Shown: piece after piece, positions 1 through 63,663 of the stretch | How positions within the stretch are numbered: the first letter of the stretch is position 1 | How the letters are laid out: each line of letters begins with the position of its first letter | Program-made: the position numbers and the translations under genes | Source of the DNA: Leucoraja ocellata | Taxonomy: Eukaryota | NCBI GenBank assembly: GCA_036785375.1 | Contig: JAWMAR010000391.1 | Coordinates: 558,001 to 622,000, forward strand | Direction of reading: 5' to 3' | DNA length: 64,000 nucleotides | The notes under the pieces: model-generated | Databases searched by the model: none | Seen by the model: only the letters and a program-made list of their open reading frames with translations | What the model was told of the DNA's origin: nothing

Positions 1-300
1 ATGGTTCCTTGTCTGCGCTCGGTCTCACCAATGTAAAGGGAGCCACAATGGAAGCACCAAATGGAATAGAAGAGGTTAGAGGAGGTACACATGAACCCTA
101 TCTCACTTGTTAGGGCTGCTGGGATCTCTGGATGGAAGTGAGAGAGGAGGTATTACATCTGAAGAGATTGCAGAGGAAACTGCTCAACGAGGAGGCAGGT
201 TGAGACAGATAAGCAAATCAACATATTGCAGAGACAGCGATCTCTATAGAAAGCAGAAAGGGGATGGATGGGTAGATGTAAATGGCATTGGTTCCATGGT
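1..300 (-). mobile_element. Degenerate Penelope-like element ORF (linker Zn-finger plus GIY-YIG endonuclease)
   Basis: Minus-strand translation pieces PSLSAFYRDRCLCNML, SFLCNLFRCNT, FMCTSSNLFYSIWCFHCGSLYIGETERR match the PLE GIY-YIG pattern. Confidence 0.85.
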
Positions 301-929
301 TTCTTTCCAATTGTATGTTGTGCTAACGTTGTTTTTTGTCATGTCTACCTTCAATTTAAATCAGCATCTGCAGTTCTTTCCTACACATTAGTTCAAGTGA
401 ACCATGGTGCGCAGTAGGTGAAATAAGTTAAGTGCAGTAAAAGGCAAGTTAATATTCAAAATAAACAGCAGACACTAAGGTTTCCACTGAATACTGAACA
501 TGTAAGAACTCAATCACCAAAACAGTGGCAAAAGAACTCAGGATGGCAAATTCACTAAAAACATAATTAAATTCACATCTTCGGTTGGGTAAGCTTACAG
601 ATTGCGGAACTAAAAACCTAACGTTTTACCAATTTTCTAAACATTTCCCTGGGTACCAAAGAACAGATATTGATTTTAAAAGCCGGTGCACAAAAAAAAA
701 CATTTTAAAATTCACTATATTCACTGGCAAATTATATACATGGGTAAACATTAGTTTTAACCCAGACATATATGCAGAACAGTAATTATAGCTCTAAACA
801 CTCACCTAACCTCCTTGTAACGAATGGCAGGATTTTCTAGGGTATTCTACACAAGGTAACTTACATTCATGGTTAGTTCCAGGTAATTCACTTTAATTGC
901 GGTGCAGAAGGCTATAAGCAGTATCACTG

Positions 930-1305: not shown

Positions 1306-1306
1306 T

Positions 1307-1440
1307 CAGTCTGAAGAAGGGTCCCAACCCAAAACATTACCTATCCATGTTCTCCAGAGTTGCTGACTGACCCACTGAGTTGCTCTAGCACTTTGTGCCT
1401 TTTCTTGTAAACCAGCATCTGTAGTTACTTATTTCTACAC
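1307..1440 (+). mobile_element. Penelope-derived short repeat, degenerate hammerhead (GAAA mutated to AAAA)
   Basis: cagtctgaagaagggtcccaacccaaaac... homologous to the 23443 copy. Confidence 0.75.
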
Positions 1441-3940: not shown

Positions 3941-4010
3941 TACCCGCTGAGTTTCTCCAGCATTTTTGTCTACCTTCGATTTTCCAGCATCTGCAGTTCC
4001 TTCTTAAAAA
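3941..4010 (+). mobile_element. 3' fragment of the Penelope-derived repeat family
   Basis: cccgctgagtttctccagcatttttgtctaccttcgattttccagcatctgcagttccttc. Confidence 0.75.
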
Positions 4011-6097: not shown

Positions 6098-6480
6098 TTA
6101 ATAGGAACACCACAAAAGTGAAGCAAATCCAAAAGCTCCAGTAAATTAATACTGAGGTTATAACTATTGAACAGAGGAGAAATTTAGTTGGCAATTATTA
6201 TCTCTCTGGTTGTGCTCAATTGAAAAATGACTTTCATCCCCTATTTTTGTAATAAATAACTCAAAAAGCATATACTAGAAGCAAAGAGTAGGATGGGCGG
6301 CAGGCAGCTTCAAATTTACTTTTAATTAATAATTACTTTGGATCTTATTCGTTCTTTGCTCAAATATGGCTATCTCACAACCACTGCATGAAGAGTAATA
6401 TCCAAATATTCTGGCCAGCTTGAAGTAGTCTTGCGATAAAATGTTCACTGACCTTCCTCAACTGTTGTTTAACAGAGTAA

Positions 6481-6694
6481 TGCCCCTGTCCCACTTAGGA
6501 AACCTCTGGAGACTTTGCGCCCCACCCAAGGTTTCCGTGCGGTTCCCGGAGGTTGCAGGTGGTTGCCGGAGGTTGCAGGTAGTGGAAGCGGGTAGGGAGA
6601 CTGACAAAAACCTCCGGGAACCACACAGAAACCTTGGGTGGGGTGCAAAGTCTCCAGAGGTTTCCGTTCAGGTTTCCTAAGTGGGACAGGGGCA
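6481..6694. mobile_element. MITE, probably PIF/Harbinger-derived (214 bp, long inverted arms)
   Basis: TGCCCCTGTCCCACTTAGGAAACC terminal inverted repeats, about 70-bp arms, flanked by TAA/TTA. Confidence 0.8.
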
Positions 6695-6799
6695 TTAGCA
6701 ACTAAAATTCATTCTCCAGAAAGCCAAATGTATTAAAAACCCAGACGATTAGTGCTCAACTGGGTTTGCAGCAGCATCTGCCACTCCAGGACATCCGAC

Positions 6800-10090: not shown

Positions 10091-10188
10091 CAGTCTGAAG
10101 AAGGGTTTCGGCCCGAAACGTTGCCTATTTCCTTCGCTCCATAGATGCTGCCGCACCCGCTGAGTTTCTCCAGCACATTTGTCTACCT
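10091..10188 (+). mobile_element. Penelope-derived short element with intact minimal hammerhead core
   Basis: AGT-CTGAAGA-A-GGGTTTCGGCCC-GAAA-CG-TT-GC; ttgaactt repeated on both sides. Confidence 0.8.
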
Positions 10189-11674: not shown

Positions 11675-14114
11675 TCAAAATTGCCCTTTATTTTTGTTAT
11701 TACTTTGAAATGATGATTGGAGTAATTATCTCCATAACTCTTGCTGGCATAACTTCCAAGAAGCTAAAATACTCAAGGGATTCCGCCTATTTAATATTCT
11801 AAAATCTATTTGCTAAAGAGCCATTAATCACAAAATATCCAGTCTTTTAATCTTTCCAATTCAGGTTGCATTTGAAGGATACCAAAGTTGAATCCTTGCA
11901 ACATAATCCTACATTTATCTGGACTTTTACCACCAATTCCTCTGTATACATTGAAAAATTTAGTTCTAAACACATGCATGAAACATATTAATGTTTGACA
12001 TAATTGGAGCTCACAGACCACAGTATAGAGACTATTTTGTTTGTATGGTCAAAGCACATTGCACGAAGTAAGCATTGTTGGCAAACATAATTCTTGTCAA
12101 ACATAAATCAGTGCATTTCCAGCACAGAAATATACTTTGCGGTTTTCAGCAGATCGCCAGTTTACATTTGGGAGCAACAATAAATGGATGTCTGACATCC
12201 ACTCCCTCAAGGTCAACGAGTTGGAAAATAAATTAAGTTTACAAAAATGTTAAAGATGGAAGATATATTTAAGGATAACATTGCAATATCTAACAGAAGT
12301 ACAGGTTTTTATTTGTTACTAAAATGTCATATACAATTAACATTCATTGTTACGAGTGAAGGTGGAAAGAGAATTGCGCAAGCTATAATTATCTTCAGCA
12401 AATTCCCATCACTTGCTCAGTCACTTTGATTACATGATCCTCTCTATTCTGCTCTATGCAGATTTAATTCCAGAATACAATGTTTCTTTTGACCAAGGGC
12501 AAGGGATCCCAATGGCAAAGAAAAACAAGACAACAGCAAAGAGAAAAATGTAAAAATAAATAATTGTTTCATTTTATTTTAAAAGATAATTACACATAAT
12601 TTTACAGTAAAAAGCAATATGATATTGCCAACTAAATCTCTGCTTAGGCTCAAGGTTACACCCAAGTAAAACAGAGATAGCAATGGGAGACTAAAAACCA
12701 CAATGCTCAAGTGACCACATCAAATAACTCCAGAGATTCTAGGCAATTGCCTTGGAGAAAGCCCGAAGAGAAATTACATTCAAACACAAAGGATCAAAGA
12801 TACCACCATATGTCGCAACTTTATATTTTCCCATCTCAGTAAACTTCCTGCATTTCTTTTCAAAATTATGATGAGCAAAGGATTTTTATAAGGAATCTAT
12901 GAACTTCTCAATTAACCTTAATATCTCCTACAGCAGTTAACTTTCCAGGTCCATTTTACAAAATTGTTTTCTAGATGTATTTTATTCCAGAAGAAAACAG
13001 GAATCTCAGTCAATCTGCAAGACCACCAATTGAAAGCTAAGTGCATGAGTCATTCTGGTGCATACCACTGCAACATTTTATTTTCATCTACATAGCTCAC
13101 TTGTTTCTCAGTCAACCAAAGGTAACAGACAGGTTCCACCAAGATGCAGGACAGAACACCACAGGAGATCCTTCTTCCCTGTGGCTATCAAACTGTACAA
13201 TTCCTCCCCCTTCTGTAGTGGGGTAGACTGAGACTGACCCCCCTCCCCCCCCCCTACAAAAAAAGATTCAAAGGTATTTTATTGGCACATGTACCAATAA
13301 AGGTACAGTGTAGGTTCCAGCATCTGCAGTTCCCTCTTAAACACAAGGTACAGTGTAATACGATTTAAACCTCAAATTATGACAGTTCTGCCTTCTTAAC
13401 TGGTCACCAACTAGGCGCAGCATGGAAGATGTCATTAGTCAAACAAATCATGTAGCATTCTTGGTCAGAAAGATTGTGCAGATTACTTGCTTAAGCACCT
13501 CATTGTCATTATGTAATTTTAAACTTTTTCTCCCATTCCTTCATTGTGAATTTTTAGCTGGTTGATCACACAGAAATGAGCTATAATATCTTGCAGCTTC
13601 TGCACTTGCTTTACAAGGTAAACAAGCAAGCTGGAAAAAAAGGCAAACTTTCCCAGGGAAGCTAATGGAAATGGAATTAACACTAACTTCAAGTAAAACG
13701 TTTTTATTCCTCAAGAAGCCATGGACTATCTCAGGCTTACAATAAATTGTAAATTTATTGCAATTTACTAAACACTGACCAGGTGAAAATAATAGATTTA
13801 TTTTGCAAAGGTAAATGTATAACTAGCTTGTGACATTAAAAACAAAGTTCCTGGCTGCACCTTAAATTGATACCTCAGAGATACTGCTGCTGTATCAAAG
13901 TTATAAAATTAGTATGTTTGGAAAATACTGGCCACTCATTGAAAACAAAATCAAACATTCATGATGTGGAATGAGAGACCAAGTATCCTTTTCAAAATCC
14001 TTACTGAGTATAAATTAATAACACTGCCAACAGATCAGGTAACAAAGTTCATTTTATGTTAGAGTGCTTACAAAACAAAATGCAATCAATTATACTTGAT
14101 TTTTTTAAATCATG

Positions 14115-14830
14115 ATTGTTCCATACACCCACCACCCTTTGTGTGAAAAGATTACCCCTCGGATTCCTATTAAACCTTTTCCCCTTCACCTTGAACCTAT
14201 GTCCTCTGGTCATCGATTCCCCTACTCTGGGCAAGAGACTCTGTGCATCTGATCTGTGAATTCCTCTCATGATTTTGTACATATCTATAAGATCACCCCT
14301 CATCCTCCTGCACTCCAAGGAACAGAGACCCAGCCTACTGAACCTCTCCCTATACCTCACATCCTCTAGTCCTGGCGACAACCCCATAAATCTTTTCTGA
14401 ACTCTTTCAAGCTCGACAATATCTTTCCTATAACATGGCGCCCAGAACTGAACACAGTATTCTAAAGGTAGACAAAATGCTGTAGTAACTCAGTGAGTCA
14501 GCCAGCATCTCTGGAGAGAAGGAATGGGTAACGTTTCGGGTCGAGACCCCTCTCCAGATATTCACAATATTCTAAATACGGACTCACCAACATCTTATAC
14601 AACTGCAACATGACTTCCCGATGTCTATACTCAATACTATGACTGATGAAGGTCAATGGCCCATATTCCCCCAAACATTCATGTTCATGTACCTATCCAA
14701 GTGTTGTAATTGTACCCGCCTTCATTACCTCATTCTACATAGCCGACAACCTGTGAAACAATCGACCCTCAGGTCCCTTTTAAATCTTTCACTTTCACCT
14801 TAAAAATGTGCCCCCTATTTTTAGACTTTC
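14115..14830 (-). mobile_element. CR1 LINE fragments interrupted by a Penelope-derived repeat (about 14466-14558, minus)
   Basis: ORF RLGLCSLECRRMRGDLIDMYKIMRG...TRGHRFKV typical of the CR1 ORF2 C-terminus. Confidence 0.8.
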
Positions 14831-14984
14831 CTGCCTTGTGACCAAACCTATCCCCATTTTATATTATAATTCTGATCCAGAAATGTGATTAAACTACTGA
14901 GTTACTCCAGCACTTTGTCTCCATCTTTGGTATAAACCAGCATCGACTGCTCTTTGTTTCTACACAAAGATGAGAGTTTGCCAT

Positions 14985-22034: not shown

Positions 22035-22129
22035 GTACACAAAAATGCTGGAGAAACTCAGTGGGTGCAGCAGCATCTATGGAGCGAAGGAAATAGGCAA
22101 CGTTTCGGGCCGAAACCCATCTTCAGACA
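22035..22129 (-). mobile_element. Penelope-derived short element, hammerhead core on the TCF12 sense strand
   Basis: Reverse complement reads GT-CTGAAGA-T-GGGTTTCGGCCC-GAAA-CG-TT-GC; atgacag direct repeat at 22028-34 and 22130-36. Confidence 0.8.
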
Positions 22130-23442
22130 ATGACAGTTTCTTCTCATTGACAATCAATGTTCACCAGGAACTAACAGGGAAGGGTTTCAATTTGAAACTG
22201 TACACAAGGATCTAAACTGCTTCCTCATTGAGAGCGGGGAAAAACATGTATTAACAAGAAGGGACAACATGAGTGGTGGGCAGAGAGCACGAAGGAAGGG
22301 GGCAAAATCAGTAACCAGAACCAAGTTGTTGATAGCAACTCAAACTGATACTGGAGGGGTACATAGATCTTATAAAAATAGGCTGATAAATCAGCTTTGC
22401 TTTGCACCTCGTGCTTAGACACATAAAAATGGATAACATATTGCTGCACCAGTTCTAACCTCTTATTCATCTGTACATCATACCTGACCCGAAACATGAT
22501 CTTCCACAAATATTTTAATCAACACACAAGTATAAGATATATTTCCATCACAAAGCAATAGAAAGCTAACTCTTTTACTTTTGATAACAGCAAAACAACT
22601 CAAAGAGCAATCAAGACAAACAAAGAGACCCACAAGTAACTACGTTTGAAAATATACTGTGATGGTTCAAATTGGGATATTTATTGCGATAAAAACCTCC
22701 ACCCCATCTAAGGATTTGATAACTATTCTGAATGGACGTTGAGATTGACGTGCCACTGCCAAATGGTACACAATGGATAATATAGACCATTCAAGATTGC
22801 ACTACCTTCTAACAACCTATTATTTCTATCATTTTCATTAAATTGTGTAAACGTTTGTTGGTACTTCCATGTTATACAAGATTTAAACCTAGGGCTGTGA
22901 ATAGTTAAGGAATTGGGAAAGGAAGAAAGGTAGTTAATCCTCAAAATTCATTAAGCCGTGTTTACAATATTATATATGGTACACTATTATATATGGCAGC
23001 AACACTTATTTAGAAGCACAATTTAAAATCTTTGTTTCTTTATCATTTGTCCAACTGTGAATTACCATTAAATAGCATGACAAAAGAGTGTAGAAAATTA
23101 TTAAATTTCCAGCATTATTAATATGTTAAATACAAATAAAATACAACCCTGTTGGTTTTGTCCATAAATACTAATTTTCTCGTTTCCCAGAAAACATGCA
23201 AAAACAGATAGAGTCATGTATAAACGAAATGAGCCAATATTGAATCATGACACTTCAATCAAGGACAATATTGGGAAAATAAGAATCAACTTCTCAACTC
23301 CCTAATCAAAAAGGGGAATTTGTTTATTGTTCTCACTCTTGATCATCATTCTCGAGTCCATACATGAGACAACAATTAGGAAATTCAATCTTGGTCATCC
23401 GTTAGCATTCCAAAACCCAGCACTCAACTATCAGTAGGAGAC

Positions 23443-23531
23443 GGTCTGAAGAAGGGTCTTGACTCGAAACGTCACCCAATCCTTCTCCAGATACTGCCTG
23501 TCCTGCTGAGTTACTCCAGCATTTTGTGTTT
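23443..23531 (+). mobile_element. Penelope-derived short element with minimal hammerhead and 17-bp TSD
   Basis: GGT-CTGAAGA-A-GGGTCTTGACTC-GAAA-CG-TC-ACC; aactatcagtaggagac at 23426-42 and 23532-48. Confidence 0.85.
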
Positions 23532-24439
23532 AACTATCAGTAGGAGACATTCAGGTAAGGTATGAGATAATAGTCAGTGACCCAGCAGGAAGAGAAATGT
23601 ATATCAACCATACAGAAATGGATAGTATCAATTTTCAATTTTGCATCTTGTTTCAAGATTCTTAATCTCATCCATTTACCAAACTTTAAATATAGAATAT
23701 AGGTTTAAAACAATAGCAGTGGTCACCTTGAAATTCTCACATACCATTACTTCTTGTCCTGAAAATGTAATCAGTGTGTAATATAATGTGGGCCTCTAGA
23801 CTTCATCATTCCATCAAACTAAAGGCCAGGTATTCTTGTTCTCCCCTCCCTAAAGAAACCCCTTCAAACGTTGTGCTTTACCTTGCATCTTTATCTATTC
23901 ACATTCACCTATGCTCAGTTACACTACATTCCAGTTAAGAATTCAAGAAGGAGCAGAGCTAACCCTTTAAGGCCAGCCATGTCCACTCCACCAAGTCTGC
24001 TTCACAAATGTAATAAAAACAAGGTAACAGTAAAACAATAATCGACCACACCACACAAATATTGATTGTTCGGCATCTGGTTCACTGGAGCTCCTCTTCC
24101 CCATGCTGACTTTATATGCACCATTTCTCATGCTTTCTTCAAACACAATAGCTTCACCGAAACTAATATTTATTATGAAATTGGACAATGTGCAAACAAA
24201 TTGAATTAAAAGCACGTTGGCATATTAATAGGATTAATATACAATTTTTCAGAAACTGCCAGTCTAGCATCACTAAAATATCCTGCAATTTACTGCATAT
24301 CCTTTACTCATTCACTCGCCCATGTATCAGCCTCCCCCCCCCCCATCCCACTTTAGCCCCAAATCTTTTGATCTCAATCTTGAATGTGCTGAATAAAAAA
24401 ATCAACCACACCCCTCGAGAGCAGAAAAAAATGTAGATT

Positions 24440-28160: not shown

Positions 28161-28356
28161 GGGGGGGGACTATGTATAAACACAGCTGTAATTTCTACAT
28201 GGTGAAACCAAAATGTATAAAAATACCTTTTACTAAAATCTGACAATGTGCACCACAATCACATGTGATTTTTTCTATTACAAATCTCAAATTGTGGAGT
28301 ACAGAGGCAAATAAATAAATGATGGGTCTTTGTGCCAAACATTATGGAGGGCACTG
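28161..28356. mobile_element. Solo terminal inverted repeat of the Tc1 family found at 33582-35229
   Basis: Matches 35035-35229; ends ...gagggcactg|TA. Confidence 0.85.
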
Positions 28357-28819
28357 TACATGACTTCATAACTATCAGTCCAGCAACTCAAGATGATCAA
28401 ACACCATAAGCACTAAAGTCTCGCACTTCCTCAACCATGCCTCTTACAAAAAATGTTTTTTGCTCAAATGAAATGAACTGGATTTTAAATATTATTTAAA
28501 ATATATACACAGTTCTTAAAATATCCATTGCAACATCCCTATTTGAAATAAGATTCAATCAAACGTTTAAACTAGTTTTTTTTTAAAAGAAGTCAAAAGC
28601 ATATGGTATTTTCTTGAATTAGAAATTTCAAAATGAACTGAAAATGGTGACACTAAAATGCTAATTTATCCATAGTAATCAAAAACATGCCTCATCATAA
28701 TAGGAGCTTGTGTGCAAGAGATAGTGTTATTAAACACACTTCCTTAATCCACCTCTTGGCGATCTAACTACAGATTGGCTTCACTGGACAATAAATATGG
28801 GGATAGGGAGAAAGAGAGA

Positions 28820-29185: not shown

Positions 29186-30265
29186 AAGAAAAGGTGCCAC
29201 TTAACCGAAAGAAAATAACCAACTTTCTCAAAGAAATAACTTGAAGCCAAAAAATACATAAACCATGAATTAGTTAAACAGACAATTGATATATCTAAAA
29301 TAGTGTATCAGAGGGAGGAAATAAGAATATCAAATAAAGGTTTGGAGCTAACATGTTTACGAGTCAAACAGAAGCTTTCAGTGCTAAAATTCATGATTCT
29401 ACATCTGTATAAACTAACCTCGTGGAATTCACTGCAATATCAAGAGATACACATTTATAAACCCAGAGCAGTTTGCTAAATACATTTGCATATATAATCA
29501 CAACAGTGATAAACTGCATTTCAGAGCCACCCCCATGATTAAATTGATAATTCCATCTTCTCATTCGTCCAAACTAATTAAAAACAAGTTGTCAAATATT
29601 TCATTAATGGCATAATGAAATTGGTGCTCTTTAACAATTGAATGCATCCTTAATAAATTAAGTTTACAATGCAATTAAAAACCAAATCTTTATCAAAAAA
29701 TATTTCATTCTGATTTTCATGAGTTGTAAATTAATATAATTCAAATAACTTCAGGTCAAGCTACTCAATACAAATATGACTCTACTCAACTCTAAAAAAG
29801 ACTTTGTTTCCATTGTTGTTCTAAACAAAATTTGTTAAGAATTAGCCAGAAAAGGTTTGTGCTTCCCAATTGCTCTTTCCATTCCAACTACAGCTGCCAT
29901 TGAATGTAATGCTGATTAAACTCAGCTGCAAATTGACAAAATGCAACTGTTACCTTAGTAACTTGTGCCTTTGCTCCAAACATGAGCTGAAGCACTTGAT
30001 TTTTTATTTTATTGATGTACCTTCTGCTTTGAACATCAAAGCTACTTATTGGAAAACAAAACTTGACATAAATTTACATGATCTCCTTTGCATTTCCCAG
30101 ATTAAGCCCCACAGAACCAACCCGACTGACATATCTCTAAGTATCCTTATCCAATGTATCATATTTAAAATTCTTGGTGTCATGTCAAAATCCCTTCACT
30201 GCCTCACCACTCCCCTTACTCCACTACTACCAACCACTCTCTTACAATTTCTGAATCGTGCATTT

Positions 30266-30465
30266 AAGAAGGAACTGCAGATGCTGGAAAATCGAAGGTA
30301 GACAAAAATGCCGGAGAAACGCAGCGGGTGTAGCAGCATCTATGGAGCGAAGGAAATAGGCAACGTTTCGGGCTGAAGAAGGGTTTCGGCCAGAAACTTT
30401 GCCTATTTCCTTCGCTCCATAGATGCTGCTGCACCCGCTGAGTTTCTCCAGCATTTTGGTCTACC
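30266..30465. mobile_element. Fold-back (inverted dimer) Penelope-derived element
   Basis: Minus arm then plus arm with CTGAAGA at 30373; ttctgaatcRtgcat duplicated at 30249-63 and 30466-80. Confidence 0.85.
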
Positions 30466-32962: not shown

Positions 32963-33581
32963 AGTTCATTAATTGAAAGTTTGCTTCAAATTACTTAGCA
33001 AGAAGTATATTTCAGATATGAAAACGCTAGTTCGATGATTAATGAGTGCATATTCGCGTGTAAATATTTTTGTATTTTGTATTTTTAAATCTTTTCAAAA
33101 GCTGTTGTGTTGTTCTTATGAATCCCACACCAAGGGAATGGGAGTTGTACGCCCAACAAACCTTTCCTTTTAAAAAACTATGTGAACAATTTAAACTCGA
33201 TAACAGTTGAATAAGCTGAGAACTTAGCCTCCCTATCAAATCCATGCTTTTGTGCATCAGCATCCTAAGGTTATGTGCTGACCAGAAAAAGAAACCATAT
33301 AATAACATCGTTTTAACTTGGGTCTTAGGGAACTTTGTCATGTGAATTCCATCATTGCTGCACAAACAAACAGCATTTGATCAGCCTGATGTTTAATCTA
33401 TCCACTGTTCACTGAAAACCAAAGAAAAAGGTAGTTTGTGTTTTAATTGTGAGAAAACACTGAGAAAGTTACAAATATATGTTTTACATCAAGAGTCATC
33501 TCCAGTTTCCAACCACTTTTGAACAGAAAAGGAAGAGAGATTTCAACAGTGCCAAGGTATTTTTTACAAAGTCATGATCTA

Positions 33582-35229
33582 CAGTGCCCTCCATAATGTT
33601 GGGGACAAAGACCCATCATTCATTATTTGCCTCTGTACTCCATAATTTGAGATTTGTAATAGAAAAAACTCACATGTGGTTAGAGTGCACATTATCAGAT
33701 TTTAATAACGGCCATTTTTATACATTTTGGTTTCACCATGTAGAAATTACAGCAGTGTTTATACATAGTCCCCCCATTTCAGGGCACTATAATGTTTGGG
33801 ACACAGCAATGTCATGCAAATGAAAGTAGTCATGTTTAGTATTTTGGTGATTATCCTTTGCATGCAATGATTGCTTGAAGTCTGCGATTCATGGACATCA
33901 CCAGTTGCTGGATGTCTTCACTGGTGATGCTCTGCCAGGCCTGTAATGCAGCCATCTTTAGCTTATGCTTGTTTTGGCAGCTAGTCCCCTTCAGTTTTCT
34001 CTTTAGCATATAGAAGGCATGCACAATTGGGTTCAGATCAAGTGATTGACTTGGCCACTCAAGAATTGACCATTTTTTAGCTTTGAAAAAACACCTTTGT
34101 TGCTTTAGCAGTATGTTTGGGATCATTGTCTTGCTGTAGAATGAACTGCCGGCCAATGAGTTTTTGAGGCATTTGGTTGAACTTGAGCAAATAGGATGTG
34201 TTTAAACACTTCGGTATTCATGATGCTACTACCACCAACAGTTGTATCATCAATGAAGATAAGTGAGCCAGTAGCTTCAGCAGACATACATGCCCAGGCC
34301 ATAACACCCCCACCACCGTGTTTCACAGATGAGGTGGTATGCTTTGGATCTTGGGCAGTTCCTTCTCTCCTCCATACTTTGCTCTTGCCGTCACTCTGGT
34401 ATAAGTTAATCTTCGTCTCAGCTGTCCACAAGACATTTTTCCAGAACTGTGGTTGCTCTTTTAAATACTTCTTGGCAAACTGGCCATCTTATTTTTGCGG
34501 TTAACCAGTGATTTGCATCTGCAGTGTAGCCTCTGTATTTCTGTTCATGAAGTCTTCTGCAGACAGTGGTCATTGACAAATCCACACCCGACTCCTGAAG
34601 AGTGTTTCTGATCTTCAGTCAGGTGTTTGGGGATTTTTCTTTATTATAGAGAGAATTCTTCTGTCATCAGCTGTGGAGGTCTTCCTTGGCCTGCCAGTCC
34701 CTTTGCGATTAGTAAGCTCACCAGTGCTCTGTTTCTTCTTAATGATGTTCCAAACAGTTAATTTTGATAAGCCTAAGGTTTGGTTGATGTTTCTAACAGT
34801 TTTATTATTGTTTCTCAGTCTCATAATGGCTTCTTTGACTTTCATTGGTATAACTTTCATCCTCATGTTGATAAACAGCAATAAAAGTTTCTAAAGGTGA
34901 CAGAAAGACTGGAGGAAATACTAGATGATGATAGCTCTCTTAGATCTTCATTCAGGAGGCTTTCAAATGCACCTGAGTAATTACAAAGACCTGTGAAGCC
35001 ATGTGTCCTAAACATTATTGTGCCCTGAAATGGGGGGGGGGGGACTGTAAAAACACAGCTGTAATCTCTACATGGTGAAACAAAAATGTAAACAAATCGC
35101 CTTTAATAAAATCTGACAATGTGCACTTTAACCACATGTGAGTTTTTTCTATTATACATCTCAAATTATGGAGTACAGAGGCAAATAATGAATGATGGGT
35201 CTTTGTCCCCAACATTATGGAGGGCACTG
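33582..35229 (-). mobile_element. Full-length fossil Tc1/mariner DNA transposon (IR/DR type), 1648 bp
   Basis: TA|CAGTGCCCTCCATAATG TIRs of about 220 bp, TA duplication; frameshifted transposase pieces GRPRKT, WTAETKI, VKHGGGGVMAW, WPSQSLDLNPI. Confidence 0.95.
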
Positions 35230-35287
35230 TATATATTCTTTATATTATTGCCACATTTAGCAAATAAAATGGTAATGTGTAAACATG

Positions 35288-44755: not shown

Positions 44756-44938
44756 GTTTAAGAAGGAACTGCAGATGCTGGAAAATCAAAGGTACACAAA
44801 AAAGCTGGAGAAACTCAGCGGGTGCAGCAGCATCTATGGAGCGAAGGAAAAAGGCAACGTTTCGGGTCGAAACGTTGCCTTTTTCCTTCGCTCCATAGAT
44901 GTTGCTGCATCCGCTGAGTTTCTCCAGCTTTTTTATGT
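44756..44938. mobile_element. Fold-back Penelope-derived element with 16-bp TSD
   Basis: Near-perfect palindrome centred on cgtttcgggtcgaaacg; actaactatgtggagt at 44740-55 and 44939-54. Confidence 0.88.
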
Positions 44939-47900
44939 ACTAACTATGTGGAGTTTTGTTCTGTGGAATCGTTCAATTGATTGAAAGAATTGCCAAAGTA
45001 GTGTAGAAAAATGTGATTCATCTGAGATGGATTCAAAGGTGAAAATTTTAGATATTTCAGTTTATTTGAAAAGATAAATATCTTTATAAACATAATCAAA
45101 TATTCCGTACCCCTTTCATATGCTGAGATCATTCATCCCAACCGATGCCATTTCTACTTCAATTTTAGCACAATGATACCTGCATCAAATTTGAGGATAA
45201 CATTATTTTGATTCATACTGAACAAAATACAGTTATGATAAAATATTCATATTTATCATTTGGTGTACATTAAATTCTAAACTAAGTCAGAGGTAAGAAC
45301 GTAAATTATTAAAATCTATTGCGTACCATACTAAAAATAAGTGGCACACAATATCAAGTGTAAACAAGAACTATGAAGTATTGGCTCAGCCTTAATTTAT
45401 TTCCAACAGAACCATAGGGATTAACTCCCTGCCCCACCCCTCAATCCAGTAGATGGAATTCTATTTTTAGAAATCCTTCCTTCTTATTTCAAATTCTTCA
45501 AATTTAGTTGATTTCAAAATTCTCAATATTAATTATAAATAATAATTAACATCACAATAATGGTAACATTCAGGGAATGAACTGAAAAAAGAGAAAGGAT
45601 TGCAGCAATGGTTTGTTATTCAATCCCACAATTAAAAACAATACCTGTACTGGATAACATGTGAAATTCGGGTGCAGTGAATTAAATCCATTTGATGCAG
45701 AGCTATCATTACAACATTCAAATGTGAGTAACTTTTAAAGCTATTGAAGCAAGATTAAATTAATTTTATTAAAATTAAAGAAAGCAAAAAAAACCAAACA
45801 CACAGGCTAACCAAATATCCACTGCCACCTAGTGTTGCTGTATTATAAAACAATTGCATAATATTCAAGTCAGTGAGGACAATGCTGATGGATATTAAGT
45901 AACAGAAATGTTCACCAATTCAGCTACAAAGTAATCAGATTACCAATCTAACTTGCAACTCAATTTCACAAAAATAGTTATGGGCAATTAGCATTAAATA
46001 TGCATATTAATATCTTAAGAGAATAGTAACCCTTGTTTGAGACTGGAATGTTTAAATTTTCCACAACACACAGTAATGTGTTTTAATATTACTATTTTGG
46101 CTAATCAAAATCACAACAAGACAATGAGACGTGGCCAGACTATCCACAATCAGTAGAGGGGATGGGGTTGAGGTTGAGATTGAGAGGGATGTAGGTGGCA
46201 CCTGAAGGTTATGTGGAAGGATGGAATTGGGAAATGCAGTAGAGGTCAGGGGAATGGTGGAACTGTGCCCAGGAGAGGGGAAGGTGAGAGTCGGGGGATG
46301 AGAGAGGACGATAGGATTGCACAGTCGGGAAGGAAGTAATTGTGCAGGAGATTGTGGAAGGGTAGCGGTAAGGAAGGGAAATAGAATGTGCTGGAGGTAT
46401 ATAAGCTGCCCTACTTAACAGCCAACCTTAAAAATTGACCCGTTCTTTGTGTATCCGTTTCCCGCCTTGCAGAGTATTTGAACCATTTTCAGTTTTAGTG
46501 CTTTGGAACACAAGTGGTATGCATGTTATATAGAGATTAAAATCTGCAATCTGCAATTTTAATCTGACAATAATATCCGGGCTCACAGTGACATGATTGT
46601 CCCAAAGGATAAACAAAAGCTCAATGAAATCAGCATATTTAATACAACCAAACAGAAATTTAACTCATTACAGGATGTTTCTGTTACATGGCTTAATAAA
46701 ATAACACAACCCTTCAATGAGGGCATAGGACACACTATTCCAACTATATTGTTAAAAGTCACCAATCCCTGTACGTCATCACCAGTTGAAAAGAAAACAA
46801 AAACAACCTGAATAAAGCCTAATATTTAAACCTTAATATTCAATTTGAGCAGCTCCAATAATTATGATAATATTCCTTTAAGTAGCCATATCTTCAGAGA
46901 AATAGCTCATTAGACAATTCCTTGTGGAATTGATTGAGATTTTAGATTTAACAATTGACAACATGAAGATAGCAATTTTAATTATGCGTTGTGCATTAGT
47001 ATATACATTAAATAAACCACTAGAGCTCGGCATTATGATGCACACAAAAATGAATAACACACCTGCATGATGCTCAGCAGGTAGTAGGCTGGTACAACTT
47101 CTGATTTCCAGCAGATGGCACTTTCAATAAAAGATTGTGACATATTTTAATGATAATCTTAAGTAAATAATAAGAATGTAAATAATTTGAATTGAAATAA
47201 TACATGAGATGACTTTCAACCATCAATGAGATTAGCCGTCCCCCCCCCCCCCCCCCCACCCCCCATATCAATGGAAATTGCAGAATCCTACAAAACAACC
47301 CAACCTGTGAAGTCCAAGCATTATCTGCCCAGATATCAACAAGAAGAGAATGGTTTCCTTGGTTATTATTGTCACAGGTACCCAGGGACAGTGAAAAGGG
47401 CTATCCAATCAAATCGGATAACATTATACATAAATATAATCGACAAACTCAAGGAAGTTTTAAAATCTCTCACCAGTTACAGAATTGTTATCCCTTATGC
47501 AGATCACTCATATACTTGAGGCACAGCAACATTATTTCAAATCACAAGGAAGCAATTCTTATATTTACCCCTCTATATAGAAGTCAGTGGAGCAGGATTA
47601 TAGTTGAATGATCTGCTGAAAATCAGAAGTCAATCTCCTTGTCATTTTCTGTCAGCGATCAAGCCAGCTCAGCTGACCCCAAGCAATTTTTTTTCCTCAT
47701 ACACTACCTTGACTAAAACAGAAATGTCAATTTTTGGCGATATATCTGCAGGACACCAATATTTAAACCTAGCTTCTTTGTTGAAGTATTTTAAACAACT
47801 GCCATAAAAAATTACAGCTCATAATCTGAAATACAAATATTTATTTCTGTGACTAGAACAAACTTTAAGATTTCAAATTAACACTGCATAGACTTTCCCT

Positions 47901-51835: not shown

Positions 51836-52659
51836 GATGGTGGCGCCTCGCGGCAGCGGCCTCTGCAGTCCGTCTGTCTTTTTTTTCCATTTTTGTCCTG
51901 TTGAGTGTATAGTTTGGTTGTAGTTTATACATTGTTTTTAGCTGTGTATATGTGGGGGGCGGGAGACTTTAAAATCTTTTCCCTATATGGGGGACCCGAC
52001 CTTTTCCCTGTCGGGTCTCCGTTGTCGTTGGGGCCTGGCACTGTGGAGTGGCCTCCAACCGGAACGACCTGGGGGCTCCAGTCGCGGAGCCTGCTGACTC
52101 ACCATCGTGGAGCTGGCGGCTTCGGAGCATGGAGAGTTGTGGTGGCGCGCGGCTGCGACCTGCCTTCGGAGGCTCCAGCTGCAGGCCCGGTGGACGGTGA
52201 CATCGGGAGCTCGCGGGTCCCTGGTGGGAGACCGCTTTTCAGAGCTTCCACAACGGCAACTTCTCCCGGCCGAATTGCGGGGTTGAAAACGACCCGGAGC
52301 GGGGCCTTATACCGCCCGGCGCTGCTTTAACGGCCGTGGGACTTGCCATCGCCAGCCGGGGGTTCCAACATCAAGACCCGGAGCAGGGCCTTACATTGCC
52401 AGGCGCGGCCTTAACAGCCGCGGGACTTGCCATCGCCCGCTGGGGGCTTTAACACCGGGAGAAGAATGGAAAACAGGGGTGAGACAATGACTTTGCTTTC
52501 CATCACAGTGAGCAGGAGATTCACTGTGATGGATGTTTGTGTAAATTGTGTTAATTGCGTGTCTTGGTTTTTTTCTTCTTGTTGTATGACTGCAGAAACC
52601 AAATTTCGTTTGAACTTCATTTGAGGTTCAAATGACAATAAACGGTATTGTATTGTATT
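51836..52659 (+). mobile_element. GC-rich non-autonomous retroelement with Rex1-type tail and internal ~84-bp tandem subrepeat
   Basis: 3' aatttcg-stem-loop(tttgaacttc/gaggttcaaa)-tgacaataaa-(gtatt)3; subrepeats 52291-52362 and 52375-52446. Confidence 0.65.
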
Positions 52660-55744: not shown

Positions 55745-56100
55745 AGCTAGTTATACAGCATCAAGGCAGGCCCTTCAGCCCACAAAGTCCATGCCAACCT
55801 TTTTGCCCATCTACTCTTGCCTATTTGCCCACATTAAATGTATATTATTTTATGTCTTACCTATTCAAGCTCCTGTCAAAACATCACCTAAATGCTGAGG
55901 TTGTATGCAATTTCACCACCTTTCTATGTCTTGCCATTTCAAGTGCCTGTCTAAAATCGCTTAAATGCCATAGTTGTATCAAGTTTCACCACTTCCTCTG
56001 GCAGTGAGTTCCAGGTATAAATCACTCTGCAGGGAACAAAACATTCCTCTCGCTCAAACCCTCTATAAAATACCTTGCTCTCGCCTAAACTGATGCCATT
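55745..56100 (-). mobile_element. Degenerate CR1 3' fragment
   Basis: RVIYTWNSLPEEVV..TTMAFKR piece. Confidence 0.6.
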
Positions 56101-57934: not shown

Positions 57935-58076
57935 ACACAGGGAACTGCAGATGCTAGAATCTTGCTTACAACACAAAGTGCTAGAATAACTTGGTGGTCT
58001 CAACCCGTAATGTCATATGTTCATATCCTCCAGAGATGATGCCTGACCCGTTGAGTTACTCCACACTTTGTGTTCT
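57935..58076. mobile_element. Degenerate fold-back Penelope-derived repeat
   Basis: ggaactgcagatgct...gcctgacccgttgagttactcc. Confidence 0.6.
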
Positions 58077-58373: not shown

Positions 58374-58522
58374 GACAGAAAATGCAGGAGTAACTCAGCG
58401 GGACAGATAGCATCTCTGGAGAGAAAGAATGGGTGATATTTCGACCCAAAACATCACCCATTCCTTCTCTCCAGCGATGCTGCCTGTCCAGCTGAGTTAC
58501 TCCTGCATTTTGTGTCTATCTT
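58374..58522. mobile_element. Fold-back Penelope-derived element
   Basis: Inverted arms aaaatgcaggagtaactcagc.../...gctgagttactcctgcatttt. Confidence 0.8.
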
Positions 58523-59309
58523 CAAGGAAAGGGTTGGAGCTTCATGGTCAAACTGTGCACCATTTGTTCATTTATCAGGCTTTCAAAGATGTTAGATTCT
58601 CTCTCATCTTATCCATGCATTCCTGCCCCACCAATGTTCACCAAGACTTCATAAATTCTTCCTTTTGTCATGTCCGTACCGGCATAAAGCATTCACACAG
58701 CTTGATACCTCCTATTCCATGCTCTAAAGTTATTTAGTGGAAGGGAAGTTGCACAAGCAGCTGGCTGCTGCGGTAACTCAGTGGGTCAGGTAGCATTTGG
58801 GTAAGATTTCAATTTGAAGCATCCCTACAGAAAGTCCATTTCCCTCCACATATATTGCCTGACCTGCCGAGTTCCTCCAGCAATTTGCTATTTGATCAGG
58901 ATTTAAATAACATACAAGTCCAGTTTGCAATTAAAAGTGTATCCTGAGTGTGGAAGAGGAGGATGTACATACTTCTGTGATGTTCTGTGGCATCTTCCCT
59001 ACCACCTAATTCAAAATTTTAGGATTTTTCTTGATTTTGCTGGAAGTATATTTTTCATGCGTTCTCTTTATCTTCCTGTGTAGGAAGGAGCTACAGATGC
59101 TCGTTTACATCGAAGATGAAATAGTGGACCACAAGAACACTAATATTACTGTTATTTAAAAAAAGGCATACATTAAGTCAATTTAATATTGGCAGTGAAC
59201 AAGTAGTTGAAATAAATTCTAAGTGAAAGCACAAACAAGCAATTAAAGAGTAATTGGTCACAGTAAGTTATTCCTAGTGATAGATAAGTGGTCGAATCAA
59301 ATTTAGTTT

Positions 59310-60017
59310 TAAGTTTAGTTTATTATTGTCATGTGCATCAACGTACAGTGAAATGCTTTTGTTTGTATGCTATCCAGAGAAAAGACTATACATGAACATG
59401 ATTAAGCTGCCCAGTGCACAAGTAAAGGATGAAGGGTACAACATTAAGTGCAATATATAAAATTAAAGTCCGATAAAGACTGCTTAAAGATAGTTTGAAG
59501 GTCTCCAATGAGAGTTGAGAGGTCAGGACTGGACTCTAGTCGATGAGAGGATCGTTCAGTTGCCTGATAGCAGCTGGGAAGAAACTGTTCCTGAATCTGA
59601 AGATATGCATTCTCAAACTTCCAAACCCGCAATTGCAGCAAATTATGGATGCAGCCCAGACCATCACACAAACCAACCTCCCTTCCATTGACTCCATTTA
59701 TACCTCACACTGCCACTGCCTCTTCTACATACCTCTTTATACCTCAAACCTGCCTCCAGTTTCTTCCCAGCTGTTATCCGGCAACTGAATCATCCTACCA
59801 CAACTAGAGAACAGCTGTGAACTACTATCTACCACATTGGAGACCCTCAAGACGATCCTTGATTGGGGTTTGCTGGCTTTACCTTGCACTAAGCGTTATT
59901 CCTTTATCATGCATCTCCAATGGCTCAATTGTAAACATTTATTGTCTTGCTGCTCACTGGATAGCACACAACAAAAGCTTTTCACAGTACCTCAGTACAT
60001 GTGACAATCAACTAAAC
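59310..60017. mobile_element. Two Rex1-type LINE 3' fragments in inverted orientation
   Basis: 59310-59620 minus and 59620-60017 plus; both carry the ttcttcccagctg(c/t)tatc motif and tgacaat tails. Confidence 0.65.
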
Positions 60018-61521
60018 TTCTGCACCACGCTGATGGGAGAGGGGTGAAAAGGGAGTGACGTAGTTTATGTCATTCCTTCGTTTTTCAGCTAAGACATCGA
60101 ACAGAAGAGCATGGAGAACATACAAGTGTTTTAAGATACTAGTTAGGCCACAGCTAGAATCCCATGTATAGTTTTGACCAACTCACCCCAGAACACAAGA
60201 GGATTCAGAGGATACACAAATATAATAATTTCACTGAAATGGGGCTGCAGGATTCTTTTAAAGCACAAAACTGATAATCATATTTCAAAGATGATCTTGA
60301 AGAGATGTAACCCTCAAGATCATGAATTCTTTATTATGCTTACACCTCCAATATCTCAGTCACTAATCTAAACTGCAACATCAGCACCATTAATTTCCAT
60401 TCACACCCTCCTCCCCAGCATTTTCACTTCCTTACAGCCTCATATTCTTCTAAACAAATCTTTGTGCTGCCACACACAAAATCGTATTTATTCATTCCCT
60501 TATTTACCCCACTTCTCAGAATTAAATTATAGGGTTTTTTTTGTCCAAAACCTCAAAATATTTGGTTTCTTTTTAAATGTTATTTATCTCTAAATTTTCT
60601 TCATTTTCTTTCTGAATTTCACGTTTAATTTCATTTCTTTACTTTTGATGTTCTTCCAAAACTTTTGAGTGTGTTAAGTTCTTCATTTCTGACATGCTTT
60701 CCTTTTTTGACTTATCCTACCCTCCAAGCACATCATCTTCCAGGGGGCTTGTTATTTGTAGAGTACCATGGATTTTTTGGTGGGATGATATTAACCCTGA
60801 ACTCCTTGGATTTCTTTTTTTTTTTTTAAACATTCCATTACACCAAGACCAATTTACCTTCTAGTAGCTGTTTCCAGTCCACTTTGTGACAGCTTTGCCC
60901 TAATTCATTGTTCTCCTGGCAATAAAAGATATACATAGCAACATGGAGTCCACACATCAATGCAAGTGACATTCTTCTCCTTGCCAATATGAAGGAATTC
61001 TAAGTGCAAGGATACCACTGCAACAACAATCCAAACACGGGTAGATATACATTTCATCCTTTTATATTTATACAGTTACAGGATTTGATTGGGCAAATAA
61101 TTAACACAGAAAATCACTACAGTTCACCACAGATATCAGAATAGGATAGCAACCATAAAGATGTAGCCCTGAACGTATTATAACTCAGGGATGTTATCGG
61201 GAATCTTGACATGCTAAGTAACTACTGAATCATTTTTTCAGAAATGCTGAGATGCACACTCTCAAAAATGATAGACAATATAGATAATATTGTTGACAGT
61301 CAAGTTGAACGTGGATAAATCACCAAATTTCTATGTGATGGTTCTCATTCTTTGTCCTAGTTTAGGCAGGATGGAAATGATACAAAATTCAAGATATCAA
61401 AATAAAATCTCACATGCAGTTGCAATCTGAATTAAGCCAAAATATTAACTGTGCATTCTTCAGAATTTGTTTCAGATGCTTGACAAACATTTTGTCAGCA
61501 CCATGAAAAGCATAAACTTAC

Positions 61522-63459: not shown

Positions 63460-63663
63460 GTTTAAGAAGGAACTGCAGATGCTGGAAAATCGAAGGTACA
63501 CAAAAATGCTGGAGAAACTCAGCGGGTGCAGCAGCATCTATGGAGCGAAGGAAATAGGCAACGTTTTAGTCTGAAGAAGGGTTTTGGCCCGAAATGTTAC
63601 CTATTTCTTTCGCTCCATAGATGCTGCTGCACCCGCTGAGTTTCTCCAGCATTTTTGTGTACC
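63460..63663. mobile_element. Fold-back Penelope-derived element
   Basis: Minus arm plus plus arm with CTGAAGA at 63571; gtatttattta duplicated at 63446-56 and 63667-77. Confidence 0.85.

Follow-up and report, generated by a model that had tools for sequence, protein, structure and literature searches.

The short hammerhead-bearing repeats scattered over the analyzed stretch of skate DNA (Leucoraja ocellata; 64,000 nucleotides, hereafter the window) are, in our judgment, likely the 3' end-pieces of an endonuclease-bearing Penelope-like element (PLE), comprising the end of its pseudo-LTR (pLTR) and an optional tail, inserted by the element's own enzymes from RNA that was probably not cut by the hammerhead. 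The source PLE is probably of the Neptune type. Self-comparison of the window revealed 16 pieces of the family, amounting to 1773 bp (2.8%). As proposed in an earlier sequence-only reading of this DNA, there are two subfamilies, S1 (GTT/GCC) and S2 (GTC/ACC), with S1 copies differing from the S1 majority at 0-5 positions and S2 copies being older and mixed. The pieces and the associated features are as follows.

1-290, minus strand: decayed PLE linker/GIY-YIG coding remnant (motif reading, by-eye comparison, Atlas lead)
342-387, plus strand: copy of the tail, in inverse orientation to the PLE remnant beside it (80% over 46 nt, E 5.6e-6)
1306-1440, plus strand: copy A, old, with decayed hammerhead and tail, starting TCAGTCTG
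3942-4010, plus strand: copy B (S1), starting at unit position 61, without hammerhead, with tail
10092-10187, plus strand: copy C (S1), intact motif, without tail; 8-bp duplication 10080-10087/10188-10195, within chance range
13313-13344, plus strand: copy D, tail alone; 13/13 duplication 13300-13312/13345-13357
14467-14562, minus strand: copy E (S2), decayed core, inside a LINE-like remnant; 13/14 duplication
14876-14958, plus strand: copy F, old 3' part with tail
22035-22129, minus strand: copy G (S1), intact motif, without tail; 7-bp duplication, within chance range
23426-23442, plus strand: left target-site duplication of copy H, 17/17
23443-23531, plus strand: copy H (S2), hammerhead and 3' part, without tail
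23444-23476, plus strand: minimal type I hammerhead motif of copy H, cut predicted from sequence between 23473 and 23474
23532-23548, plus strand: right target-site duplication of copy H, 17/17
30264-30465, both strands: inverted copy I, tailed on the minus arm, the plus arm tailless and bearing the core; 14/15 duplication
44756-44938, both strands: inverted copy J, arms joining within stem II, only the minus arm tailed; 16/16 duplication
57941-58072, both strands: inverted copy K, old, with the minus arm tailed
58374-58523, both strands: inverted copy L (S2), both arms without tail, no duplication found
58766-58887, both strands: very old inverted copy M
59077-59115, minus strand: isolated tail piece
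63460-63663, both strands: inverted copy N, tailed on the minus arm, the plus arm tailless and bearing the core; 15/17 duplication

Copy H, the 89-bp insert earlier noted with a perfect 17-bp target-site duplication, is present exactly as described, its letters matching the string then given: CTGAAGA at 23446-23452, an extra A, stem II at 23454-23465, GAAA at 23466-23469, followed by CG and TC. It is an old copy, about 10% decayed, with 11 differences from the window S2 majority over 93 aligned positions, and comparison with reads showed that it lacks 3 bases present in other copies. In two related organisms (organisms B and G), contigs enter H from both flanks with the insert at the same site, those of organism G having 35 other letters over about 630 bases at this locus. 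Because both organisms carry H at the same place, the insertion predates their split; no empty site of H was found among the 15 listed of 498 joints.

To assess target-site duplications, 14 family sites were searched with mismatches allowed, with 300 random site pairs as control. The scores were 17 for H, 16 for J, 13 for D, 12 for I, 11 for both E and N, 8 for C and 7 for both A and G, with nothing useful at B, F, K, L and M. Recognizing that the 300 random pairs never scored above 8, we regard the six duplications with scores of at least 11 (6/14 sites; 13-17 bp) as real and those of C, A and G as within chance. The copies also have two alternative 3' ends: with the first core C counted as position 1, the sense arms of C, G, H, E, I, J and N end near unit position 90-93, and B, D and A, together with the inverted arms of I, J and N, extend 36 nt further, to about position 129. 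This optional 36-nt tail was likewise found behind the subfamily of H in reads (10,480 RNA reads, agreement 0.5). Six copies (I, J, K, L, M and N) are inverted head to head, and the tail lies on exactly one arm in 4 of the 5 that are clearly resolved (I, J, K and N), L having it on neither arm and M being too old to score. The centres of the inverted copies differ and have short overlaps, with J and L joining inside the self-complementary stem II. At 5 of 6 3' junctions, 2-3 nt are shared between the target and the continuation of the element, which may reflect pairing at priming or merely a TT-rich cutting preference. The 5' ends vary, ranging from tail-only through mid-unit to one arm that reaches the PLE endonuclease; insertion can proceed without the hammerhead, as seen from the 13/13 duplication flanking the tail-only copy D and from copy B, whose first position is 61. 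Staggered duplications, two 3' ends, inverted pairs and the lack of ends at the cut site are observed facts about how these copies were inserted.

The tail, the one-tailed inverted arms, the tail-only insert and the GIY-YIG remnant, all overlooked in the sequence-only reading, are published hallmarks of PLE insertion, and its proposal that Penelope-type enzymes mobilised the family gains support from these marks of PLE ends (tail, inverted arms). Insertions of endonuclease-bearing (EN+) PLEs are described, in the passages drawn on here, as 5' truncated, with a second truncated copy next to them in inverted orientation and with one end bearing a tail of 30-40 bp (Craig et al. 2021, PMC8557442), and the same layout with palindromes at the inverted junctions has been reported (Arkhipova et al. 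2013, PMC3846280). The skate family resembles the EN+ PLEs of these two papers in its 5' truncation, inverted partner, one-end tail, variable target-site duplication and junction palindromes, but its duplications are 13-17 bp vs. 8-10 bp in rotifer EN+ PLEs, and it has a single dominant 5' stop, of which the passages cited from PMC8557442 and PMC3846280 describe none for EN+ PLEs. De novo PLE insertions in Chlamydomonas have a median length of 128 bp (PMC9977147, in the part cited).

The closest mechanistic parallel is PAc, a Poseidon PLE of Anolis carolinensis, which, like the skate family, places its hammerhead some 100 nt ahead of two alternative 3' ends, which in PAc are separated by 30-40 nt (Frangieh et al. 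2024, PMC11167929; all statements on PAc are from the sections drawn on here). In PAc, uncleaved RNA is the template, both target strands are cut and extended, and reverse transcriptase (RT) has two internal start sites whose spacing equals the 30-40 bp PLE tail; hammerhead mutants still insert, with insertion unaffected, and cleavage occurs only with protein, with no RNA-seq ends at the cut site (PMC11167929). There are differences as well: 1) the PAc ORF starts at stem II, whereas the skate unit has no frame tied to an RT or PLE protein (2 protein matches); 2) the skate remnant at 1-290 (minus strand) is Neptune-like by its linker cysteines as compared by eye, whereas PAc is a Poseidon; 3) PAc is reported to prime without homology, in contrast to the 2-3 nt shared at 5/6 junctions in the skate family. 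By analogy with PAc, we surmise that the GIY-YIG domain would nick both target strands some 13-17 bp apart and that RT would start inside the uncut RNA at one of two sites, yielding copies without or with the tail. RT would then copy some 30-130 nt before stopping, with the hammerhead's 5' edge as its commonest stop, and where both nicked strands prime, the two cDNAs would join via a 1-5 nt overlap, often in stem II, to generate the palindromes. Two-strand nicking, internal priming on uncut RNA and cDNA joining are steps that we infer from this analogy.

The link between the unit and a PLE coding region comes from the left edge of the window, where 1-290 (minus strand) can be read as a cysteine-bearing linker followed by a GIY-like strand, a pair of cysteines and YIGET. 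This reading corresponds to the PLE signature, with GIY-YIG and CCHH-type cysteines, given in the portion of PMC8557442 cited here, and the remnant resembles, by eye, the Neptune rows of the alignment in that paper in its linker cysteines. An Atlas search with it led to eukaryotic clusters at 0.90-0.94, one with GIY-YIG PF01541 on 10% and another with PF26215 on 18% of its members, and Pfam, PHROGs and PDB gave no significant match. The inverted tail at 342-387 lies about 50 nt upstream of the remnant, and the two together appear, from their sequence, to be arranged as in I, J and N, one of the arms being long. Pfam on 75 of the 167 window ORFs of at least 70 aa found no RT or GIY-YIG; DNA pattern scans of viral and metagenome contigs for the unit gave 0 loci; a metagenome protein scan with the GIY-YIG piece gave 592 pattern matches, none confirmed; and homologue searches with the tail-frame peptide and the GIY-YIG piece, weak as evidence, returned none. 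Since no full-length element was found in those scans, the tie between unit and ORF rests on one decayed remnant. A candidate second PLE remnant at 46249-46410 (minus strand), in a pyrimidine-rich stretch (46100-46430, minus strand) resembling a PLE linker by eye, gained no support (Atlas 0.76, recognition 1144, no match to the first remnant).

With regard to the hammerhead itself, the related cores named earlier all exist (10095, 30373, 63571 and 1311 on the plus strand, 22126 and 14557 on the minus strand), and the full core is present at 10095, 22126 and 63571 but not at 30373, which has two core changes and fails a strict descriptor comprising the core, a stem II of at least 3 bp, self-pairing 15.2/16.2, UH and a stem I of at least 2 bp. 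This descriptor gave 4 matches (10095, 23446, 63571 and 22126), being copies of one family and not independent events, vs. a mean of 0.017 in 60 order-3 Markov windows; a loose hammerhead pattern, seen 8 times vs. 5.4 expected, was not significant. Rfam had no hammerhead match over the whole window at E<=5; the microRNA and CRE matches in Rfam are the palindromic copies, all below the gathering score. Some details required revision. Stem I, read before as 3 bp, is 2 bp in the family, with the third pair forming in only 2 of 7 copies; the family letter before 23444 is A and not the G of the proposed GGT start (the loose-end consensus ends in TCA in 4/4 runs); and for stem II, taken as 5 bp closed by a 2-nt loop, 4 bp and a 4-nt loop are the better reading. 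Over the seven core-bearing copies stem II is 96% paired, compared to 12-53% overall in slid controls. None of the stem pairs in these 7 rows displays a two-sided change, and the one-sided U-G/U-A changes in stems I and II retain pairing.

Judged on these sequence features, the motif reads as a real minimal hammerhead of the PLE type. Like the minimal hammerheads of metazoan PLE pseudo-LTRs (Cervera and De la Pena 2014, PMC4209133, as described in the sections used here), it is without helix III and has a palindromic 15.2-16.2 (CG in H, C, G and E), an extra base between 9 and 10.1, a G10.1-C11.1 pair (G-C in 6/7 copies) and a short helix I; as differences from them, the skate motif has 4 bp in stem II and 2 bp in stem I. 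Those motifs are described in PMC4209133 as mostly single and dispersed, probably truncated PLEs, with pairs on opposite strands and thousands per fish or amphibian genome. In copy E (14467-14560, minus strand), the core carries two A-to-G changes by which it pairs better with the downstream arm of the 5' hairpin (fold z -3.9), possibly a fold-back repair or chance.

Does the ribozyme shape the unit? Cleavage after position 28 would leave a 5' end at position 29, and the 15 measured arms start at -4, -2 (five arms), 1, 13, 14, 16, 18, 20, 20, 22 and 61, with 0/15 at the cleavage site; the RNA run had no pile-up of read ends at the cut site either, fragmented RNA-seq being a weak test. The expectation that the core would be more conserved than its flanks was not borne out in inserted copies, where the core decays as fast as the rest: the 15 conserved core positions were changed in 3/90 cases vs. 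27/764 elsewhere in S1, and in 9/69 vs. 67/477 in S2 (p=1.0 for core vs. rest). Between the subfamily majorities, there were 0/15 core vs. 13/64 downstream changes (p=0.05), or 0/15 vs. 23/98 with the tail included (p=0.025), the S2 tail resting on one copy; this lends modest support, at the level of sequence, to selection on the core in the source elements. The best fold of H pairs the core with sequence after the cut site, the hammerhead shape lying 13.9 kcal/mol above it in the H monomer, 4-8 kcal/mol in C, G and N, and 25-40 kcal/mol as tandem dimer, in energies that omit tertiary contacts, Mg and protein. Published minimal hammerhead activity, in the passages at hand, is low or protein-dependent (PMC4209133, PMC11167929). 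Given the 0/15 cut-site starts, the neutral decay of the core and the lack of Pol III boxes, the ribozyme is likely a passenger that did not itself give rise to a SINE. Selection on the hammerhead likely acts in source elements only, with inserted copies such as 23443-23531 being probably inert.

Despite the variable 5' ends of the family as a whole, all seven core-bearing arms start within 6 nt (-4 to +1), at a TCAGT motif. Under smooth truncation, the probability of this shared start is 7e-6 or less, and random truncation fails to explain the common edge. In DNA contigs, the 30 letters upstream of the edge agree at 0.33-0.34, compared to 0.32-0.34 for random flanks, and the flanks end in TCA in every run; since they are as mixed as random sequence, a fixed short unit dominates. 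In RNA reads, by comparison, pyrimidine-rich sequence lies upstream of the core, with an agreement of 0.40 over 3427 reads vs. 0.32-0.34 for random, and this shared sequence indicates that longer parents are transcribed and that a minority of copies extend further. Contigs under-count long copies because they collapse shared sequence. Run-off at a transcription start, a stall of RT, or a short non-autonomous master would each produce such an edge. TCAGTCT at the edge is a perfect Pol II initiator match, and initiator matches occur at 1.3% of sites in the window. The same letters also fit a 3' splice site after a pyrimidine tract, and the edge may be a splice junction, with an upstream exon joined to TCTGAAGA, as in Drosophila Penelope, where the start site is inside the pLTR and an intron ends at helix I (PMC2377424 and PMC4209133, in the parts cited). 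We suggest, tentatively and with considerable doubt, that the edge is the RNA's own 5' end, with the short copies as run-off ('strong-stop'-like) cDNAs and the G at 23443 as a copied cap. On this run-off reading, the PLE enzyme would prime in the first pseudo-LTR of the transcript and reach the cap after 95 or 130 nt, and palindromes would form if each of the two target nicks primed, using one start site apiece; our literature search on cap-derived G found nothing. A hairpin with its base at the 5' edge forms in H and E but takes a different form in S1, and so gives no support to a stall of RT at one conserved structure.

The high copy number and the absence of an ORF claimed earlier both hold. 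In three DNA runs from related organisms, 122,524, 86,789 and 107,174 contigs matched a 2.4-kb stretch that contains copies G and H, almost all of them at these two repeats. In one poly(A) short-read RNA run, 38,533 of 12,895,792 reads carry the unit, both strands alike, and 99% of them run on into other sequence, as befits a repeat of very high abundance that is transcribed passively. RNA reads with a joint back 41 bases within 23488-23528 (676 reads, 158 starts), far above their share in DNA contigs, probably derive from one highly expressed transcript with a partial tandem copy. A representative search with the unit translation gave 2 proteins (P0001 and P0002), one without Pfam family and the other a TRIM-type (RING, PRY, SPRY) host protein with the repeat translation mid-protein. 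Because neither has a PLE domain, the unit gives no sign of being a PLE N-terminus. Repeat translation in public predicted proteins is likely gene-model contamination or exonisation. The family was not found in searches of the literature on cartilaginous fish or for two 17-base motifs (Repbase and Dfam being outside those searches), nor among the searchable supplements of PMC4209133 (file 1 not covered); this kind of genomic debris is already described, and the sequence family itself was not found in print.

We weighed these end-pieces against a dedicated non-autonomous short element, in which short masters or host transcripts carrying a 130-nt unit are copied in trans by PLE enzymes as a lineage of their own. 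The sharp 5' edge common to 7/7 core-bearing arms, the random-looking flanks upstream of it in contigs of three DNA runs and the unit-bearing poly(A) reads are all in line with such an element; moreover, pLTR sequences are all that mobilisation in trans requires (PMC3846280) and there are PLEs of the non-autonomous kind (PMC8557442), each as stated in the portion drawn on. However, the 5' ends range from tail-only to coding sequence, RNA reads contain upstream family sequence, the contigs bearing those flanks collapse shared sequence and so under-count long copies, and there are no Pol III boxes and no tRNA head, a weakly controlled finding as the control repeat is also without a B box. A separate SINE-like family, as the sequence-only reading had it, is therefore not upheld: the unit has no tRNA, 5S or 7SL head, no A/B box (with the same weak control) and variable 5' ends, along with marks of PLE ends, and no A-rich or microsatellite 3' tail was found on it. 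A SINE-like master survives as a reading because 7/7 core-bearing arms share one 5' boundary, and overall we deem the non-autonomous element unlikely.

Far less probable still is a non-LTR retrozyme, whose head-to-tail repeats self-cleave, circularise and are reverse-transcribed so that the ribozyme defines the unit. Head-to-tail joints (23529 back to 23444) do occur, in 21, 28 and 31 contigs of the three DNA runs and in 7 RNA reads, and the core is conserved between subfamilies; but the window lacks a tandem array, no arm starts at the cut site and read ends do not pile up there (the latter a weak test), the motif is minimal and not canonical, and adopting the hammerhead fold costs 4-14 kcal/mol over the best fold for a monomer and 25-40 for a tandem dimer, in the energies described above. 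Animal non-LTR retrozymes (Cervera and De la Pena 2020, PMC7229834; Li et al. bioRxiv 10.64898/2026.07.22.740005), present also in a chondrichthyan in the survey, are, like the skate family, ORF-less and PLE-pLTR-related with a type I hammerhead, but they form tandem arrays, mostly of 170-400-nt units with a working ribozyme each, whereas the skate copies, of 30-130 nt and with a minimal motif, lie scattered as monomers or paired head to head. With no array in the window, the unit is not a retrozyme as defined in the cited parts of PMC7229834 and the 2026 preprint. Finally, the palindromes could be MITEs of a DNA transposon, or the short copies LINE-dependent SINE tails, with an incidental hammerhead look. 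Long inverted arms and the commonness of LINE- and Tc1-like remnants in the window fit this idea, but the arms are unequal (tail on one), the centres differ between copies, the duplications vary over 13-17 bp, there is no A-tail or microsatellite tail, and the strict hammerhead motif is far above chance, leaving it with hardly any credibility.

The window, which is animal DNA, also holds LINE-, SINE- and Tc1-like debris that may resemble the repeats of skates or rays. At 6478-6697 there is a 220-bp imperfect palindrome with matching ends, a MITE in appearance and unrelated to the hammerhead family. Three copies of a repeat of about 200-235 bp (28161-28366, 33569-33805 and 35002-35234; 88-90% identity) are presumably SINE-like; the one copy scanned had no B box. 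At 33850-34890 (minus strand), HTH Pfam matches below cut-off mark what we assume to be a Tc1/mariner-like transposase remnant. In addition, 59311-59587 and 59757-60019 form an inverted pair of LINE-tail-like pieces of about 270 bp with 67% identity, and short tandem duplications lie at 52291-52446 and 55851-55992 (periods 84 and 73).

If the repeats are PLE end-pieces, as we favor, then debris of PLE ends makes up about 2.8% of the window, is readily mistaken for MITEs, microRNA hairpins or SINEs, and leaks into gene models. PLE integration is partly worked out, and this family, with its long duplications, its two 3' ends and its one dominant 5' end, supplies natural junctions in numbers large enough to decide between run-off at a transcription start, a stall at an RNA structure and a non-autonomous master. 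Should the run-off reading be true, tens of thousands of copies or more would record, in nature, the still unsolved integration cycle of PLEs, and transcripts that start at the edge would all behave as promoter-bearing, SINE-like passengers.
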